Made by a program: the position numbers and the translations under genes
Origin: Candidatus Omnitrophota bacterium
Lineage (GTDB): Bacteria > Ratteibacteria > UBA8468 > B48-G9 > DTJG01
DNA length: 64,000 nucleotides
Reading direction: 5' to 3'
NCBI GenBank assembly: GCA_023819255.1
Contig: JAMWBU010000001.1
Coordinates: 16,348 to 80,347 of the forward strand
Part shown: positions 325 through 41,572 of the stretch, piece after piece
How positions within the stretch are numbered: the stretch's first letter is position 1
How the letters are laid out: each line of letters begins with the position of its first letter
The notes under the pieces: model-generated
The model's database searches: none
Seen by the model: only the letters and a program-made list of their open reading frames with translations
Told to the model about the DNA's origin: nothing

Positions 325-1121
325 AAAGATCTTTGTTGCTTTCGATCTTTGGACATATGTTGCTGATATCTTTGTTCATTCATAATAATTACAAAATGAA
401 AGCAAAAGAAACTGAAAATGTATATGTGGTTGATTTATTAAGTTTGCCGCCAGCGATAACTGTTTCAAATAATATAATATCAGCTTTCAGGGTTGAAAAT
501 GCTCAAGCGTCAGGAGGAATGACAGAAGAGAGGTCTTTTCCAACTGTAAAATTTTCATCTAACAGAGACAGAGTAGAAAAAAATGAGGCTGAAGATTTTT
601 CCACCAGTGAAAATTTTTCTTCCGATCAGTACATTTCAAGGATAAGGGAAAAGATGGGGCTATCGATGTCTTCAACATCCGCTGGCAATACACCTTTGTC
701 AGCAAAAGAAATACCATCTTCGCATCCAGAACGAGAGAAAACAAGGTCTCTGGCTTCAAAGATTTTTCCATTGTCAGCTGAGAATTCAACAGGTTTTTCT
801 GTTGGGATCCAATCTTCTGGTTTACCGTCAGGAAATATTATTCCTCTTGATTACCTTGAGAATATCAAGCTTTCTCTTCAAAAAAAATGGAGACTGCCGG
901 AGGAGAAAAATTATTCTCTCACTTCTGTGGTTTCATTTCGCCTTAAAAAAGATGGAACAATCGCAGACATTATCCTTGAAACAAGTTCTGGTGTGAGGTC
1001 TTTCGACGAGAGCGCGATGCAGGCTGTAAAGGAAACCGGAAAACTGGAGCCCTTGCCGCCAACATATAAACTCAATTATCTTGATGTTACAGTAAAATTT
1101 AATATGAGGGGGATAGAATGA
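321..1121 (+). CDS. tolA: TolA/TonB-family protein with an N-terminal membrane anchor and a TonB_C-type C-terminal domain
   Basis: An N-terminal TM helix (LLLSIFGHMLLISLFI) is followed by a low-complexity linker and a TonB C-terminal-like domain (…LKKDGTIADIILETSSGVRSFDESAMQAVKE…VKFNM). It lies between tolR and tolB and overlaps the tolR stop by 4 nt. Confidence 0.6.
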   Translation: MKRSLLLSIFGHMLLISLFIHNNYKMKAKETENVYVVDLLSLPPAITVSNNIISAFRVENAQASGGMTEERSFPTVKFSSNRDRVEKNEAEDFSTSENFSSDQYISRIREKMGLSMSSTSAGNTPLSAKEIPSSHPEREKTRSLASKIFPLSAENSTGFSVGIQSSGLPSGNIIPLDYLENIKLSLQKKWRLPEEKNYSLTSVVSFRLKKDGTIADIILETSSGVRSFDESAMQAVKETGKLEPLPPTYKLNYLDVTVKFNMRGIE

Positions 1122-2353
1122 GAAAACACATTTTAATATTGTTTGGATGTCTTTTTACCCTGACAAATCTTTATGGGCAGAGCAGAGTAACAATTGAAAT
1201 TACATCATCTCTGGAGACAAAAACTGCGTCTTCAATTTTGATTGCAGTAGAAAAAGATGCCTTCTTTGAGAAATTTTCCTTGCAGCTGGCAAAAGACCTG
1301 GAAAATTCGGATTGGCTGGATATAAAAAGTGTAGCGTGGAAGACGGAATTTAACATTAGTTCGGAAATGGAAAAAGCCTCCAGAGAAAATGTCAGGCTTT
1401 TGATTGTGTGTGAAGCTAAAGAAAAGCTCGAAGTAAAGGTTTACGATATATTTGAAAAATCTTTGATTTTTGAGTTTAAGACTGACATAGAAAAATCACC
1501 TGTTGATCTTGCTCATACTGTTTGTGATGAAATTATTTATCGGCTAACAGGCAAGCCCGGTATTGCAAAGAGCAAGATACTTTATATGACCAGGACCAAA
1601 GATATCCACACCATAATGATGGCTGATTACGATGGCTCAAACGCAACGCAGATCTTTTCCGCACAATACATCATAAATTATCCGAGGTGGTTTCCTGGCA
1701 TGGAGAAGGTCCTTTTTCTTTCATACAGAAAGACATTTCCATCCCTTGATCTTCTGGATTTGAAGACCAGGCAGATGGAAACTTTTCTTTCTGAACCCGG
1801 CTTGAACGCCTGTGCGTCATTTTTTAGAAATCAGTCGATGGCAGCCGTAGTTCTCAGTAAGAGCGGAAATCCAGATATCTATATAGTTGACCTCAAAGGA
1901 AAAATTATCAGAAGAATCACAGAGAAAAAAGGAATCAACGCATCCCCTTCTGTTTCGCCGGATGGACAGGATATTGCGTTTGTTTCTGACAGGGATGGGA
2001 AGACAAGGTTGTGGGTAATGAACCCTTCAGGATTAAATGTGAGGAAGGTTGATATTCCCTCAAACTACACAACTTCTCCGTGCTGGTCACCGGATGGAAG
2101 ATACCTTGCTTATGCTGTCAGGTACGGAACAGAGATGTTTATTGAAATATATGATTGGAACACTGGTAAAAGAAAACTTTTGACTAATGGGATCTCATGG
2201 GCCGATGCTCCTTGCTGGGCTCCAGATAGCAGGCATTTGATTTTTACCCGGCAGGACAGGTATCAGAATTCTCTCTGGGCTATTGACATACATAATCTTA
2301 AGATGAAAAAGATTGCTGATAACGCATGGAGCGGATGCTGGGCGCTTCGTTGA
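1118..2353 (+). CDS. tolB: Tol-Pal system beta-propeller protein TolB
   Basis: Signal peptide, then an N-terminal TolB domain, then repeated beta-propeller blades (SPDGQDIAFVSDRDGKTRLWVMN, SPDGRYLAYAV, APDSRHLIFT). Gene order is tolR-tolA-tolB-pal. Confidence 0.85.
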   Translation: MRKHILILFGCLFTLTNLYGQSRVTIEITSSLETKTASSILIAVEKDAFFEKFSLQLAKDLENSDWLDIKSVAWKTEFNISSEMEKASRENVRLLIVCEAKEKLEVKVYDIFEKSLIFEFKTDIEKSPVDLAHTVCDEIIYRLTGKPGIAKSKILYMTRTKDIHTIMMADYDGSNATQIFSAQYIINYPRWFPGMEKVLFLSYRKTFPSLDLLDLKTRQMETFLSEPGLNACASFFRNQSMAAVVLSKSGNPDIYIVDLKGKIIRRITEKKGINASPSVSPDGQDIAFVSDRDGKTRLWVMNPSGLNVRKVDIPSNYTTSPCWSPDGRYLAYAVRYGTEMFIEIYDWNTGKRKLLTNGISWADAPCWAPDSRHLIFTRQDRYQNSLWAIDIHNLKMKKIADNAWSGCWALR

Positions 2354-2395
2354 CAAAATGGAAGTGTCTGGTATAATCAACCAAAAGGAGGAGAT

Positions 2396-3040
2396 ATGAA
2401 ATTAGAAAAAGTAATATGTGTTGCGCTTTCCGCTGTAATTTTGTCCTTGATGCTTTCCGGTTGCTGCCCTTATTCTAAGAAAAAGACAGCAGAGAAAGAA
2501 ATTCAGCCAGCTGTTGAGGCTGTTTCTCCACAGAAAACTGCTATTGTACAGAGAGAAGAACCGTCTGTTCCTTTGCCTGTAAAGCCCGATATCGAAAAAG
2601 GGAAGGCAACCTCGGCAGAAGTGAAAATTGCGACTACTGGCGGTGAGATACCTGTTGCAAGACCTGAAGGCGATATGAAATTTGTTGAGCCTGGAGAGCA
2701 ACTTAAAGAAATATTCCAGCCAATCTATTTCGATTTTGACAGGTACAATATAAGAACATCCGAGCAGAGCAAGTTGAAAATCCTGGCAGAATATCTAAGA
2801 AAAAATTCAGAGATTTCAATCCTTATCGAAGGGCATTGTGATGAGCGCGGAACAGATGAGTACAACCTTGTGCTTGGGGAGAAAAGGGCTTTGAGTACAA
2901 GAAACTTTCTGATTGGACTTGGCATCGCGCCAGCAAGGATTTACACAATAAGTTATGGAGAAGCAAGGCCAGCAGATCCCGGACACAATGAAGAAGCGTG
3001 GACGAAAAATAGAAGGGCTGAATTCAAAATAAAACAATAA
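2396..3040 (+). CDS. pal: Peptidoglycan-associated lipoprotein Pal (OmpA-family C-terminal domain)
   Basis: Lipobox (LSGCC), then an OmpA_C-like domain: IYFDFDRYNIRTSEQSKL…IEGHCDERGTDEYNLVLGEKRA…NRRAEFKI. RBS aaggagga 8 nt upstream. Confidence 0.9.
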   Translation: MKLEKVICVALSAVILSLMLSGCCPYSKKKTAEKEIQPAVEAVSPQKTAIVQREEPSVPLPVKPDIEKGKATSAEVKIATTGGEIPVARPEGDMKFVEPGEQLKEIFQPIYFDFDRYNIRTSEQSKLKILAEYLRKNSEISILIEGHCDERGTDEYNLVLGEKRALSTRNFLIGLGIAPARIYTISYGEARPADPGHNEEAWTKNRRAEFKIKQ

Positions 3041-3043
3041 ACA

Positions 3044-3868
3044 ATGAAAAATATGCGAAATTTTCTGATACTAATTTTCCCTCTTTTTATGCTGGCAGGT
3101 TGCACTACAATTGTCAGCAGGGAAGATCTTGACGCATTCAAGACAGAAATTGAGCAAAAGCTTGCGGTTGTTGAGAATAATAGTTTAAAAAATTCAAAAG
3201 AAGTCAATGATGGCATTAACAATCTCAAACAATTACATCAGCAGCAACAGGAAACAATTATGGGTGTGGCTGAAGAGAGCAGAGGCCGTATTCAGGAATT
3301 GAAGATTGCTATTGACGATTCAGCCCAGAGTCAGAGAAAGGAATTTGAATTTTTTAAAAAAAACCAGGAAGAAAAAAATTCACAGTTTGGTCAGGATATT
3401 GATACGATTAAAAAGTCTCAGAATGAATTAATGCGGACATCGGCATCACTGATGGATTCTATGGTAAATCTTCAGAAGGACCTTCTGGCTTTAAAGACAT
3501 CCCTTCAACAGGTTGCCAGCGAATTTGACGCGATGAACAATAGAAAATTTATTGACGAGGCAGAAATTTTAAAACTAAAAAAATACTATGATGGACAGAT
3601 AGAGACCTTGCTTAATGAAATCGTGAGACAGGAAAGCGAAATTTTCGCGTTGAAACAGGTTTATCAAAAAAAGCAGGCGTCTCAAGATTTTGAGGTTACT
3701 GGTCACGATTCCAGAGAGATGGCGACAGCGAGGTATCACACAGTGAAAAAGGGTGAAACTCTTTCCGGCATAGCAAAAAAATACAACACAACAAGTCAGA
3801 AACTACGGGAAATAAATAAGTTGAAAACTGATACTGTCACAATTGGTCAAAAACTTGTAATACCATGA
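3044..3868 (+). CDS. Coiled-coil lipoprotein with C-terminal LysM domain. It occupies the CpoB/YbgF position after pal; alternatively a FimV/TsaP-like pilus-associated peptidoglycan binder.
   Basis: Lipobox (MLAGCTT), then a long Q/E/K-rich predicted coiled coil, then a C-terminal LysM motif (YHTVKKGETLSGIAKKYNTTSQKLREINKL…GQKLVIP). It follows pal and overlaps the pilD start. Confidence 0.6.
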   Translation: MKNMRNFLILIFPLFMLAGCTTIVSREDLDAFKTEIEQKLAVVENNSLKNSKEVNDGINNLKQLHQQQQETIMGVAEESRGRIQELKIAIDDSAQSQRKEFEFFKKNQEEKNSQFGQDIDTIKKSQNELMRTSASLMDSMVNLQKDLLALKTSLQQVASEFDAMNNRKFIDEAEILKLKKYYDGQIETLLNEIVRQESEIFALKQVYQKKQASQDFEVTGHDSREMATARYHTVKKGETLSGIAKKYNTTSQKLREINKLKTDTVTIGQKLVIP

Positions 3869-37704: not shown

Positions 37705-38436
37705 TCATTTTTTCAGTGCATTACGCTTTAAGGTGAACCGCATTAAAATTAACGTAATCTCATAAAGAAGAATCATGATTCCGGATACTATCAGCATCGT
37801 AAAGCCATCTATTGTAGGAGTAATAAGAGCTGCAATGACGAATATGACGACATATGCAATCCTTCTCATTTTTTTGAGCCAGTCAATTTCAATGATTCTA
37901 GAGATTCCCATAAAGAACATGACCACTGGAATCTGGAAAATAAGTCCCAGAATAAGGTTCATCCAGATTATAAAAGATAAATACTGGTTTATTGTAATCA
38001 TTGGTTCCATGATGCCGGCTCCAAATCCAAAAAGGATTTTAAGGCCTGCTGGAACAATTGCAAGGTGACTGAGGCATATTCCAGAATAAAAAAGGATAAC
38101 TCCTATAAAAAGGCACAGACCAAGCATTTTTCCTTGTTGTCTGGTAAGTGCTGGTTTTACAAATACATATGTTTGATAAAGTATAAATGGATAGCTGAGT
38201 AATAACCCTGAAAAAAGCACTATTTTTATAACAGAAAGAAATGGTTCTACTGGAGAAATGAAAACAGGGTTTTTTTGAAGGTTTTGAAGTGGGTTGACAA
38301 TGTACTTAAGTATATGTTTATTAAAGACATAGGATAAAATACAAGCAAGAGAAAACCATATCAGGACAAGAATAATCCTTTTTCTGAGCTCTTCAAGGTG
38401 ATCAAGAAATGTTCCATTCTGGGCAGAATTTTTCAT
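37705..38436 (-). CDS. tatC: Twin-arginine translocase subunit TatC
   Basis: FLDHLEELRKRIIL… N-terminus and a six-TM layout. 243 aa. Confidence 0.85.
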   Translation of the reverse strand: MKNSAQNGTFLDHLEELRKRIILVLIWFSLACILSYVFNKHILKYIVNPLQNLQKNPVFISPVEPFLSVIKIVLFSGLLLSYPFILYQTYVFVKPALTRQQGKMLGLCLFIGVILFYSGICLSHLAIVPAGLKILFGFGAGIMEPMITINQYLSFIIWMNLILGLIFQIPVVMFFMGISRIIEIDWLKKMRRIAYVVIFVIAALITPTIDGFTMLIVSGIMILLYEITLILMRFTLKRNALKK

Positions 38437-38624
38437 TCCTCATTCTTGTTATCTTTTTCTTTTTCGTTCTCTACATTCTTTTCCACCTCTTTGAGTCCTT
38501 TTCTAAATTCTCCAATCGCTTTGCCGAAGGACCTGCCGATCTCTGGCAATCTTTTTGCTCCAAAAAGAAGCAGGACTATCAGTCCTATTAAAATCAGTTC
38601 CTGAGCACCTAAGTTCATATTCAC
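38433..38624 (-). CDS. tatA: Twin-arginine translocase subunit TatA/E
   Basis: LGAQELILIGLIVLLLFGAKRLPEIGRSFGKAIGEFRKG: TM helix, hinge FG and amphipathic helix. Confidence 0.85.
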   Translation of the reverse strand: MNMNLGAQELILIGLIVLLLFGAKRLPEIGRSFGKAIGEFRKGLKEVEKNVENEKEKDNKNEE

Positions 38625-38639
38625 CTCCTGATTGTTATG

Positions 38640-39227
38640 CTAAGCATAGTTTCCATTATAGATATAGACCCTTTTTTCGCCTTTGTTTGTAACCCTTATG
38701 GCTGCCTCTTTTGTTGTGACGGGACAATTTTCTTCACAGAGACCACAGCCAGTGCATATTTCAGGATTGACAATGGGCCTACCCTGTCCATCAAGATATA
38801 TTGCATGTACAGGACAGAACTCAAGGCAGACCAGGCACTCCTTTTGATGTGTCCATACCAGACATTGGTTTTCATAAATCCTGGCGGTTCCGATTTTTAT
38901 TGTTTCCTGGTTAACATTTCTGATTGCTCCTGTCGGACAAACTTTGCCGCAGCTCTGACACAGAATACAGCCCTGTTCTCTTGGAATTATTTCAGGAGTT
39001 GTCCCGTTTTCAAAAGATCTTTCCAGACGAACCTGCTTCAAACATTTTGCCGGGCATGCTCTTATGCACTGTCCGCACCTGACACAGAGTTTTGAAAAGA
39101 ATTTTTCTTCAACTGAGCCAGGAGGTCTGATAAGGAAGTTTTTTCTAAATCTCTTTATTAATGTACCAGGGAGTAAAATGGCAATGGCAACTGCTGTAAG
39201 AGATACCAAAAATTCCTTTCTATTCAC
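38640..39227 (-). CDS. Polyferredoxin with four [4Fe-4S] motifs and a Tat-like RK signal (NapG/MauM-like)
   Basis: Four CxxCxxCxxxCP motifs (CVRCGQCIRACP, CILCQSCGKVCP, CLVCLEFCP, CTGCGLCEENCP). N-terminus NRKEFLVSLTAVAIAILLPG resembles a Tat signal with RK instead of RR. Confidence 0.7.
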   Translation of the reverse strand: MNRKEFLVSLTAVAIAILLPGTLIKRFRKNFLIRPPGSVEEKFFSKLCVRCGQCIRACPAKCLKQVRLERSFENGTTPEIIPREQGCILCQSCGKVCPTGAIRNVNQETIKIGTARIYENQCLVWTHQKECLVCLEFCPVHAIYLDGQGRPIVNPEICTGCGLCEENCPVTTKEAAIRVTNKGEKRVYIYNGNYA

Positions 39228-39855
39228 CCTTTTTCCTTTTTTTCAAAATATTTCCTGTTAATGTGTAAAATCTTCCGAGCGGACAAACGTAGTTGCACCA
39301 TAACCGCGGAAAAAGCACACTGCTGAGTACTATTATGGACAAAAAAACAACCCATAATTTCACCCCTGTCATCGCCTGACCGAGGATAACAAAAGGATCA
39401 AAGATAAATCCCGTGTAAGGAAATGAAAAAATAAGCGTGCTAAGAGAAGATGCGAGAACAAAAATAAGAATCCAGAGGCTTGTTTTTCTTAATATTTTTG
39501 GCGAGGTAAACGAAACCTTCCATAATCTTCTGAAGACAAGCAAATTAAGGTAATCAATGCTTCCGCCGAGCGGACACAACCAGAAGCAAAAAAAGTTACC
39601 CGCAATAATAATTAATAAAATCATAATAAATCCAGGCAACAGAAAAATAAAGAATTTACCTGAATTGATAAGAGTTTCCAGCGCGAGTAAGCCATTAATT
39701 TTGAAGTACATAGTGACAGGAATTTTTTCAGGTAAAGGGAAAACAGCGGTCTTGTGCAAAAGAAAGAAGAAAAAGAAAATGCTTGTAAGTTGAACCAATC
39801 TTCTAAAGATCAACCTTTTTTTCAGTCCGTTATGTAAAAAGAATTTTTCAAACAT
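39220..39855 (-). CDS. Integral membrane protein with two CX3CP motifs (NapH/MauN/CcoG-type membrane module, lacking the C-terminal ferredoxin domain)
   Basis: Four predicted TM segments. CFWLCPLGG and CNYVCPLGRF motifs. Confidence 0.55.
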   Translation of the reverse strand: MFEKFFLHNGLKKRLIFRRLVQLTSIFFFFFLLHKTAVFPLPEKIPVTMYFKINGLLALETLINSGKFFIFLLPGFIMILLIIIAGNFFCFWLCPLGGSIDYLNLLVFRRLWKVSFTSPKILRKTSLWILIFVLASSLSTLIFSFPYTGFIFDPFVILGQAMTGVKLWVVFLSIIVLSSVLFPRLWCNYVCPLGRFYTLTGNILKKRKKGE

Positions 39856-40768
39856 AGGTTAATTTGACTTTTGAAAGGTCTGCGATGCCAAGACCCATCT
39901 TCTCTGCTATCTGCAGATGCCTGACTTCTGATGGATTTACTCCAAGCAGTGTCGCTCCATAGGCATCAAGGGCAACAAAATCCAGTCCTCCGCATACAGT
40001 TCTGGTTTCTTTTACTTCGCCTGGTCCCTGCGGACCTCTTGTAAGGAGGATTCTTGTGGCGTCAACGATCGTAAAGGCTGGCTTCAAAAAAGAAGAAATA
40101 TCAACAATACACTGATTAAGATCTGTTCTATGGAAAAACCCTCTATCCCTGACTGCTCCCATCCAGTTTTTCATTGAAATTGTTATTCTTGCCTGAGAGC
40201 CATGGACTTTTGCAACAGGAACATTTACAAGCACATCAGCATCAAGGATATCTTCAAGTATACTGGCTTCTTTGAGCACTGCGCCATTCGGAATAGACAC
40301 TGTTCTGAATTTTTCAGGAGCCCTCATTGTTCCTCCAGCATTTTCGACAGCATCCTTGATGCCTGTTGTGACAAATGTTGTTTGCCATGGGTTGCAGGTT
40401 ACATCTGTCACAATAATAGAAGAAGCACCCGCATTTCTGCACATTTTCACCAGGGCTCCGACAACTTCAGGATGGGTTGTCGCCGCTTGCTCTGGGGTCC
40501 TGTTCCATGCGATATTGGGTTTTATGACAACCTTGCTTCCCTTTTTGACGAATTTATTGATAGCGCCCATCGCTTTTACTACGCGAAATGTCATTTCTTC
40601 AGGTGAACCATTTTTTGAAATAAAAATTTCTGATGAGGATTCAGCCGCCACAGATGGAGTTTCTGAAATCCTTGTATATTTTGAGGCAATTAATCCAAGG
40701 GTCGCAACAATACCTGTTTTTAAGAATTCCTTTCTGTCCATAATGCCTCCTTTTTTGTTGAATTTCAA
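39848..40768 (-). CDS. DUF362-domain protein with a Tat-like RK signal peptide
   Basis: …VVIKPNIAWNRTPEQAATTHPEV… DUF362 core. N-terminus MDRKEFLKTGIVATLGLIAS…VAAES. The start may be the internal MDRK at 40741. Confidence 0.6.
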   Translation of the reverse strand: MKFNKKGGIMDRKEFLKTGIVATLGLIASKYTRISETPSVAAESSSEIFISKNGSPEEMTFRVVKAMGAINKFVKKGSKVVIKPNIAWNRTPEQAATTHPEVVGALVKMCRNAGASSIIVTDVTCNPWQTTFVTTGIKDAVENAGGTMRAPEKFRTVSIPNGAVLKEASILEDILDADVLVNVPVAKVHGSQARITISMKNWMGAVRDRGFFHRTDLNQCIVDISSFLKPAFTIVDATRILLTRGPQGPGEVKETRTVCGGLDFVALDAYGATLLGVNPSEVRHLQIAEKMGLGIADLSKVKLTYV

Positions 40769-41572
40769 TTACTTAGCAGAAAAAGTTTAACCTTTTTCTT
40801 AATGTCGTTATTCCCGATGTTTTGATTATAGCACCAGTCAGGTATTCCGGCAAGCGAAATCAGGATCTTAAATTTTTTACGTTTTTTCTGGCATAAGTCG
40901 AAAGAGCTTTTTTCATGGATAACGGGTTATCTGGCGCCCTGATTCTTTTTGAGTTTATTTCGGTCTTTAATTTATGTTTCACTCGATTGGAATTTTTTTG
41001 TTTGGTGTATCCATAAATTAGACTTCAATTACAGGGTCGGGTTTATTATTTTTTTTATACTGCAAGAATAAACGAAGAAATTAAGAGCGCGATGAAAATA
41101 ATCCTATTTTTTTAAGGAAAGGGTTTTATTTTTGTTGATTTTCAGGGGTACTTCATAGTGTTGGTATAGTACGATGTTGTGGCGATTCAGGAGAATGCTT
41201 TTCAGGTGGGACATTCTTCTGCATCCGCAATTCCAGTTTTGAGTGCGAATTTTTCTTGTTCTATTTCTGCAGGGAATTGTAGTGGATTTTGGAAATCAGG
41301 GTATATCTGCAGTCCCCCCCTGCCCTTTCCCGAATGCGGTAAGACGAGTAAAAAAAAGCAGATGAACTCTCAAAATCTTTTTTACCTCTGACCCCGAATA
41401 AAATTCAAAAGAATCATTTTTTCCTGGAAGCGGGTTCGAATAGGTGCCGCAATGATCTGGTCGTATTTTTCTACTATGAGATCTCTTTCAAATTTTAACG
41501 AAGTTTAAATATAGACTGCATTATGAAGTTAATATAATATTAACTTCGCAACTTCACTACTTCATAACTTAA

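Follow-up and report, generated by a model that had tools for sequence, protein, structure and literature searches.

The paired arginines of the signal sequence are the defining, almost invariant feature of targeting to twin-arginine translocation (Tat). Here we describe an operon of a Candidatus Omnitrophota bacterium whose two candidate Tat substrates, a DUF362 protein and a NapG-like poly-ferredoxin, carry arginine-lysine (R-K) in place of the arginine pair (R-R), and whose TatC is altered at the residue equivalent to the contact site of the second arginine. The operon lies on the minus strand of a 64,000-nucleotide stretch of contig JAMWBU010000001.1 (GenBank assembly GCA_023819255.1), referred to below as the window, and also encodes a NapH-like membrane protein and TatA. 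The group of relatives that share the R-K pair is called the R-K clade.

The contacts between signal and receptor have been described for Escherichia coli TatBC with the substrate MdoD by cryo-electron microscopy (cryo-EM) in 2026. The first arginine forms a water-mediated hydrogen bond to Glu15 of TatC and is stacked under Phe94; its neighbour, the second arginine, is salt-bridged to Glu103, lies against Tyr100 and faces the lipid head groups (PMC13323110). A parallel preprint gives the same assignment of contacts. The TatC variant E103A abolishes substrate binding (PMC13323110), and the variants E103G and E103K show severely impaired transport, with no growth on sodium dodecyl sulfate (SDS) and poor growth on trimethylamine N-oxide (TMAO). 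On the signal side, a single exchange of arginine for lysine slows transport in E. coli without blocking it, and the second arginine also tolerates asparagine or glutamine (PMC1182353); a review describes lysine as "poorly tolerated" (PMC7317946). Huang and Palmer found that with a hydrophobic signal core (h-region) neither the R-R motif nor its site on TatC is strictly essential (PMC5539426). Natural exceptions are known from single proteins, namely K-R in Salmonella TtrB and the chloroplast Rieske protein, and R-N-R in E. coli penicillin amidase. In an incomplete search of the literature, neither an R-K Tat signal that is naturally fixed across a clade nor a natural exchange of TatC Glu103 to match it was found described, and nothing linked DUF362 or Omnitrophota with the twin arginine.

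The canonical S/T-R-R-x-F-L-K signal, read by Glu15 and Glu103 of TatC (PDB 9e01), has much in common with the system studied here: the tripartite layout, the N-cap Asp or Asn, the first arginine and the Glu, Phe and Leu of the motif, the lysine after F-L in the DUF362 protein, a basic c-region, His12, Glu15 and Phe94 of TatC, a cofactor-protein cargo, and R-R orthologues. It differs in that the second arginine is lysine in both substrates and that Glu103 is replaced by Gln or His and position 104 holds a small residue. Furthermore, the clade system is of the TatAC type, as tatA is the sole TatA-type gene in the operon, with no TatB, and Tyr100 is not conserved. TtrB, the Rieske protein and penicillin amidase are likewise natural signals with one "invariant" arginine out of its usual place. 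However, these are single proteins that occur beside canonical substrates and a canonical TatC, with their lysine variants at the first position, whereas in the R-K clade the second position is changed in every operon-linked substrate clade-wide and the receptor is changed as well. Laboratory variants (Stanley 2000; DeLisa 2002; Kneuper 2012; Huang & Palmer 2017) concern the same two positions, with K, N or Q at position 2, and defects at E103 could be compensated from the signal side. They are engineered and mostly impaired states of the E. coli system, in contrast to the natural, fixed and conserved combination of the clade.

R-K signals and the TatC receptor position in one clade

The DUF362 protein begins M-D-R-K-E-F-L-K (ATG GAC AGA AAG GAA TTC TTA AAA) and the NapG-like protein M-N-R-K-E-F-L-V, of which M-N-R-K-E-F-L is encoded by GTG AAT AGA AAG GAA TTT TTG. 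An RKEFL string on both proteins next to tatAC had been pointed out in the initial annotation, and the sequence bears this out, with both strings on the minus strand and tatA and tatC directly after. The two candidate exported proteins that it had placed beside tatAC are both present, but a third gene, encoding the NapH-like protein, lies between them and had gone unmentioned. Neither protein has two consecutive arginines in the n-region, the pair being R-K. The remaining motif is in register: D-RK-E-F-L-K and N-RK-E-F-L-V align column for column with the RREFLK of orthologues. An AAGGAGG sequence is located 6 nt upstream of the DUF362 ATG at 40741, and all DUF362 orthologues of the clade begin M-[DN]-R-K, none supporting an MKFNKKGGI extension. 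The TTG-initiated form (MKFNKKGGI..., to 40768), carried along as an alternative start in the initial annotation, is therefore unlikely to be real.

Both N-termini were compared with the signal features given in PMC7317946, i.e. moderate hydrophobicity, a helix-breaker 12-17 residues past the motif and a basic c-region, and agree with them. The h-region of the DUF362 protein is short and weakly hydrophobic (TGIVATLGLIA; Kyte-Doolittle (KD) value 1.73); SKYTR forms its basic c-region, and cleavage is possible at VAA/E (SVAA/ES). In the NapG-like protein an uncharged h-region of 18 residues (KD 2.3) with a proline near its end, 17 residues after the first arginine, is followed by the basic sequence KRFRK and then by a conserved RPPG. 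This N-terminus has no A-x-A signal peptidase site, in the R-K and R-R clades alike. Because A-x-A is absent and KRFRK runs straight into RPPG, it probably stays in the membrane as an uncleaved signal anchor. A hydrophobic h-region with an Ala-rich c-region had been ascribed to both proteins; such a c-region was found in the DUF362 protein only. No match to the TAT_signal profile hidden Markov models (HMMs) TIGR01409 and PF10518 was obtained with either native N-terminus. Exchange of the lysine for arginine in silico resulted in weak PF10518 matches of 17.1 and 15.0 bits, still under the cut-off of 22.7.

The R-K pair is conserved throughout the closest relatives. All 12 of the closest DUF362 homologues (67-100% identity) begin M-[DN]-R-K-E-F-[LI]-K, and homologues from 63% identity down begin x-R-R-[ED]-F-[LI]-[KR]. 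For the NapG-like protein, the 16 closest homologues (61-99% identity) have R-K, and the other 104 among the matches listed have R-R, truncated entries aside. Among the 120 best homologues listed for each protein, R-R occurs in 98 for DUF362 and in 92 for the NapG-like protein; every remaining Omnitrophota-type orthologue has R-R too, and so do 127 of the 143 loci that were scored. On every contig holding both genes, the R-K or R-R state of the two proteins agrees. In a neighbour-joining tree of the mature DUF362 domain, from which the signal had been removed, the R-K set is monophyletic and nested among R-R lineages with Omnitrophota/Ratteibacteria labels. These comparisons show that R-K in both proteins is more than chance, and the proposal of a lineage-specific signal variant holds up: R-K is fixed in both substrates of a monophyletic clade, with none in the R-R sister lineages. 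Base composition was rejected as the cause of the exchange, as R-R-clade loci with a GC content of 0.27-0.33 retain AGR-AGR codons. In the R-K-clade loci (GC 0.33-0.41) the codons are AGR-AAR, and the lysine codon drifts synonymously between AAA and AAG with the amino acid kept.

Sporadic single variants were also seen elsewhere. Two DUF362 proteins carry such a variant, MERKEFLK on a 1.4-kb contig (P0064) and TRKELLKK on a 92-kb contig of Eremiobacterota (P0095), and the polyferredoxins of three loci (L103, L145 and L146) have internal K-R motifs.

For the receptor, the TatC proteins of the operons were aligned with E. coli TatC (from NC_000913). The alignment is ungapped around the invariant P-A-L motif, as is a HMMER alignment to the sequence of the Aquifex aeolicus TatC crystal structure. 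TatC of the window keeps His13, Glu16 and Phe92 (E. coli His12, Glu15 and Phe94), and the equivalent of E. coli Glu103 is Gln101. Since the second arginine forms its salt bridge with Glu103 (PMC13323110), the signal residue and the TatC residue that are changed are the two partners of one contact. The Glu103 position is occupied by Gln (seven) or His (one) in all eight R-K-clade operons, and the residue after it is small (G, S, A, T or D). In all eight R-R operons of Omnitrophota it is Glu, followed by K, R or Q. Among the closest TatC proteins in a database of 5.8 billion proteins, 11 of 11 (48-100% identity) have Gln or His, and the next one, at 40% identity, has Glu. A pattern-based count of loci with both TatC and DUF362 gave 32 R-R loci with Glu and 8 R-K loci with Gln or His. 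Four R-R loci were not scored by the pattern, because of a one-residue insertion (L083), a spurious match (L095) or TatC fragments (L035 and L102); for L083 the alignment shows Glu, which makes it the 33rd R-R-linked TatC with this residue. No confirmed discordant pair of signal and TatC was seen among the loci carrying both TatC and DUF362. The initial annotation had recommended a look at the signal-binding site of TatC, and there the equivalent of Glu103 is Gln or His in exactly the R-K clade.

Glu103 is also singled out by its conservation. A set of 146 TatC cluster representatives has 48 positions with a conservation of at least 70%, and Glu103 alone among these departs from the consensus in the R-K clade while being uniformly kept in the R-R sister clades. 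His12, Glu15, Phe94, Pro97 and Leu99 are retained in both R-K and R-R clades, and Tyr100 of E. coli is conserved in neither Omnitrophota clade. When DUF362 divergence is matched (0.63 identity), TatC proteins share an identity of 0.39 across the R-K/R-R boundary compared with 0.48 within the R-R group, and the NapG-like protein shows no excess divergence across this boundary. Differences in TatA between the clades are minor in the alignment. An AlphaFold2 (AF2) model of the window TatC (pLDDT 90.1) has the six-transmembrane TatC fold, with TM-scores of 0.78-0.84 to 4b4a, 4hts and 9e01, and shows Gln101 where the third transmembrane helix begins. Gln101 is a departure at one binding residue and gives no ground for excluding the protein from the TatC family.

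A comparable change was found in an independent lineage of Bacteroidota type, on a 3.9-kb metagenome contig with a GC content of 0.50 (L125, JGI994J12354_10022361; region 423-3056). Its DUF362 protein starts MDRKEFLK and shares about 62% identity with Bacteroidota proteins of Paludibacter type, all of which start MKRRDFF. Its polyferredoxin, a NapH/NapG fusion, has the internal signal-like motif SRNLFLKG (R-N), where 13 of 14 aligned relatives have S/T-R-R-x-F (SRRTFL type) and one has K-R. Position 2 is thus replaced in both partner proteins, which fits the prediction of a lineage-level, translocase-level cause. The contig does not include TatC; the prediction for this lineage is a TatC that lacks Glu at the 103 position.

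Explanations for the joint change

We consider it most probable, at roughly 60%, that the recognition pair of signal position 2 and Glu103 was replaced on both sides in the ancestor of the clade and that Tat export of both substrates was retained. In this scheme, a TatAC-type export system would share one operon with its two substrates, the LarA-fold DUF362 protein and the NapG-like ferredoxin, and these two would form a periplasmic redox module together with the NapH-like membrane protein. The ancestor of a single clade would have exchanged the second arginine of the signal for lysine in both substrates, and Glu103 of TatC for Gln (or His) followed by a small residue. The other contacts would be unaltered: Glu15, His12 and Phe94 would still bind the first arginine, and the consensus Phe would still sit in a hydrophobic pocket. 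Because these remaining contacts are unchanged, R-K signals may still be read by TatC. Position 2 would then be read by a neutral polar pocket, with the lysine amine bound to the Gln carbonyl and/or a lipid phosphate, in place of the guanidinium-carboxylate salt bridge; this chemical rationale for lysine preferring Gln is plausible. The joint change may have been made possible by the tight operon linkage and by what are perhaps only two clients, encoded in cis. From the sequence comparisons we infer that export or insertion of both proteins is still Tat-dependent and that the changes in signal and TatC are functionally coupled.

Several points weigh against a coupled replacement. The main R-K clade represents one evolutionary event, and the three coincident substitutions are therefore not statistically independent. 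TatC carries 27 clade-discriminating columns altogether. About 10-14% of the TatC cluster representatives near the window TatC are without Glu at the 103 position, so that its loss is not unique. There is background turnover between arginine and lysine, and the basic columns are invariant in 15 of 36 and 8 of 27 cases, which makes the invariant lysine only modestly informative. Finally, the h-region of the NapG-like protein is longer and more hydrophobic in the R-K clade than in the R-R clade (KD 2.30 versus 1.95). Considering the bypass by hydrophobic h-regions (PMC5539426), the system may rely less on position 2.

In an alternative explanation, constraint was relaxed without coupling, and the R-to-K and E-to-Q exchanges each drifted to fixation independently on one long branch, in a small genome whose Tat system has very few clients. 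Signal binding would lean on the h-region and on the contacts of the first arginine and the Phe. Agreement with the cryo-EM contact would then be a coincidence or a sign of generally weakened recognition of position 2. The single origin and the 27 discriminating TatC columns are as this explanation would have them, as are the tolerance of E. coli for R-K, R-N and R-Q, the bypass of the R-R motif and its TatC site in line with the hydrophobic NapG-like h-region, and the existence of other TatC lineages without Glu103. However, tolerance alone predicts a mixture of lysine and arginine, whereas lysine is invariant in 28 of 28 sequences even though arginine is one transition away. Among the highly conserved TatC sites only Glu103 switches cleanly, the h-region of the DUF362 protein is not more hydrophobic in the R-K clade (KD 1.73 versus 1.78), and the L125 lineage repeats the change at position 2 in both partners. 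Uncoupled relaxation is regarded as less likely.

Still far less likely is that the N-termini are Tat signals no longer and have become Sec/YidC signal anchors or Sec signals, with tatAC as a decaying or re-purposed remnant. Both tat genes are intact and score above the family cut-offs, and the positions His12, Glu15, Phe94, Pro48, the Glu170 region and the Asp211-type residue are kept in TatC. Conservation of these positions across a clade with 48-88% TatC identity points to purifying selection on tatC. The missing TAT_signal profile matches would fit a loss of Tat function, as would three features of the NapG-like N-terminus: no A-x-A, a consensus lysine of F-L-K that has been lost in the R-K clade, and a hydrophobic stretch of 17-18 residues. 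On the other hand, the R-R orthologues have canonical Tat signals at the same position, and both the basic c-regions, a Sec-avoidance feature, and the helix-breaking Pro/Gly 13-17 residues past the motif are retained. A ferredoxin with multiple Fe-S clusters and a LarA-fold protein are, moreover, typical folded, cofactor-loaded Tat cargo. An artefact (wrong start codons, an assembly error or a chance five-residue match) could be suspected from the upstream TTG start (DUF362) and the GTG start (NapG-like) in the list of open reading frames, but is excluded for practical purposes by the ribosome-binding site before the ATG and by orthologues with identical starts and motif in more than 20 independent assemblies (NCBI, JGI, ENA and Logan).

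A search for other Tat-type signals that covered the 64-kb window together with some 199 kb of R-K-clade loci and some 125 kb of R-R-clade loci, which are syntenic samples and not genome-wide, found none. Further candidate matches in these loci were rejected as lipoprotein, prepilin or internal TatC segments. At 10351-17795 the window contains a gene cluster with N-termini of the prepilin or type II secretion type, e.g. MKKRKFIEKGFTLVELMVV and MRKGLTIIEFLLAF; these are Sec/prepilin signals and not Tat signals.

The operon and its cargo

The operon consists of five tightly packed, partly overlapping genes, three of which lie within 38640-40768. Their coordinates and family assignments are collected in Table 1. 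The start codon of the NapG-like gene overlaps the stop codon of the gene upstream. For tatA, the ATG that fits the MNLG start of the orthologues was preferred over a GTG at 38624; the protein has the N-terminal transmembrane helix, hinge and amphipathic helix of TatA by alignment. No credible riboswitch or other RNA element was found upstream of the operon.

Table 1. Features of the operon, in window coordinates; Pfam and TIGRFAM scores are followed by the cut-off where available
Feature	Coordinates	Strand	Description
DUF362 gene	40741..39848	minus	297 aa; PF04015 165.9 bits (gathering score 24); MCM8821250.1
NapH-like gene	39855..39220	minus	polytopic membrane protein; two CxxCP-type Fer4_5 motifs; PF12801 46 bits
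NapG-like gene	39227..38640	minus	195-aa poly-ferredoxin; multiple Fer4 Pfam matches
tatA	38618..38433	minus	PF02416 69.4 bits (cut-off 21); TIGR01411 72.1 bits (cut-off 53.9)
tatC	38436..37705	minus	243 aa; PF00902 189 bits (cut-off 25.1); TIGR00945 177 bits (cut-off 132.7); MCM8821246.1
RKEFL motif, DUF362	40735..40721	minus	AGA AAG GAA TTC TTA
RKEFL motif, NapG-like protein	39221..39207	minus	AGA AAG GAA TTT TTG
TatC Gln101 codon (E. coli Glu103 equivalent)	38134..38136	minus	CAA
Promoter-like site	40825..40853	minus	TTGCCG-17-TATAAT, extended -10 TG; about 85 nt upstream of the DUF362 start codon; consensus match only

The R-K and R-R groups share the five-gene operon and its synteny, with the pyruvate phosphate dikinase (PPDK) gene upstream and pdxJ, an aminotransferase gene and trpS downstream, and the NapH-like gene is kept at the same position in all operons of both groups. 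One R-R-clade relative (L168:10001-13160) has the DUF362, NapH-like and NapG-like genes in the same synteny and no tatA or tatC there, a DUF4013 gene being next instead. Between PPDK and the operon, the window has about 800 bp without a convincing open reading frame (40769-41572). At the equivalent place, a gene of about 650 codons whose product has no Pfam match is present in L164, L165 and L168, and pyruvate:ferredoxin oxidoreductase genes are present in L167.

The NapH-like protein scored 50 bits with the NapH/MauN family TIGR02163, under the cut-off of 213, and is not a member of that family; it is presumed to be the membrane or quinol-side partner. For the NapG-like protein, 98 bits were obtained with NapG PRK09476 (cut-off 269) and 80 bits with MauM/NapG TIGR00397 (cut-off 178.85). 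Judged by these scores it resembles NapG and is not a member, and it may work like NapG. The AF2 model of the DUF362 protein (pLDDT 89.5) consists of a helix spanning residues 3-22, a linker at 19-34 that is disordered, and a globular domain. No match was found in a sequence search of the PDB with this protein. The best PDB folds for the domain in a Foldseek search were the nickel-pincer LarA racemases (TM-score about 0.5, E-value 3e-7, 12-13% identity), which is consistent with the Pfam clan shared by DUF362 and the LarA N-terminal domain, DUF2088 (PMC11770544). The residues K178-V-H180, H204 and C211 are invariant in 34 DUF362 orthologues.

Together, the DUF362, NapG-like and NapH-like proteins look like a periplasmic redox module. 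The NapGH quinol dehydrogenase module is similar in its domain types, gene adjacency, the RPPG after the NapG signal and the predicted topology. It differs in that the HMM scores of the proteins described here are far under the cut-offs, NapA and NapB are missing, and the partner is a DUF362/LarA-fold protein. Genes for DUF362 and a poly-ferredoxin, often with tatAC beside them, form a combination that is widespread across Bacteroidota, Verrucomicrobiota, Desulfobacterota and further groups. The tatA-tatC pair is located immediately upstream of the DUF362 and polyferredoxin genes in Paludibacter and additional Bacteroidota as well as in Victivallales and Goldbacteria (L011, L013-L016, L022-L024, L027, L028, L088, L094, L113 and others). 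The linkage of DUF362 to Tat is thus widespread and not peculiar to the R-K clade.

Position 103 in other TatC lineages and implications

In a separate TatC lineage (L170:1354-2097, L171:986-1720, L175:101-868 and the proteins P0254-P0264), the position of Glu103 is taken by Val, Ile or Met (FVKPALSxKVRKNL). Its gene order is CapA-like metallophosphatase, tatC, tatA. The three loci were rejected as a replicate of the R-K clade, as the N-terminus of the CapA-like protein, the putative substrate, is cut by the contig end in all of them. A different arrangement was seen in L173:9075-10744 (GCA_023381695.1), where a tandem pair of tatC paralogues comes after tatA, one with Glu (RREER) and then one with Gln (NRRQRR), adjoining a molybdopterin oxidoreductase and genes for molybdenum cofactor (Moco) biosynthesis. 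Specificity could be split here between two receptors. P0393, the second of two tandem TatC paralogues and the one with Gln, was likewise rejected as a replicate, as no informative substrate is encoded nearby.

Beyond the joint replacement in the R-K clade, it is tentatively suggested that the clade has an "Arg-Lys translocase", in which TatC with Gln at position 103 prefers or requires lysine or another non-arginine residue at position 2 and so serves as a private channel for the two operon clients. If true, position 103 of TatC would be a general, evolvable specificity switch, and the same switch could underlie the R-K/R-N pair of L125, the TatC lineage with Val/Ile at position 103 and the tandem paralogues with Glu and Gln.

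The covariation with TatC adds a specific, testable mechanism to the lineage-specific signal variant. The contact that reads the second arginine, TatC Glu103, was resolved only in 2025-26, and a natural clade altered on both sides of this contact provides independent evolutionary support for the structural model. The R-K/Gln pair is ready-made material for double-mutant cycles that probe the reading of position 2, and it suggests a route to orthogonal pairs of Tat signal and receptor for engineering. Predictors that accept only R-R (e.g. TATFIND or the regular expression of TatP), and likewise the TAT_signal HMMs used here, report no substrates for these genomes, although they clearly keep Tat. 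For the biology of the family, the operon ties a widespread, uncharacterised module of LarA-fold DUF362 protein and NapGH-like poly-ferredoxin to Tat export.

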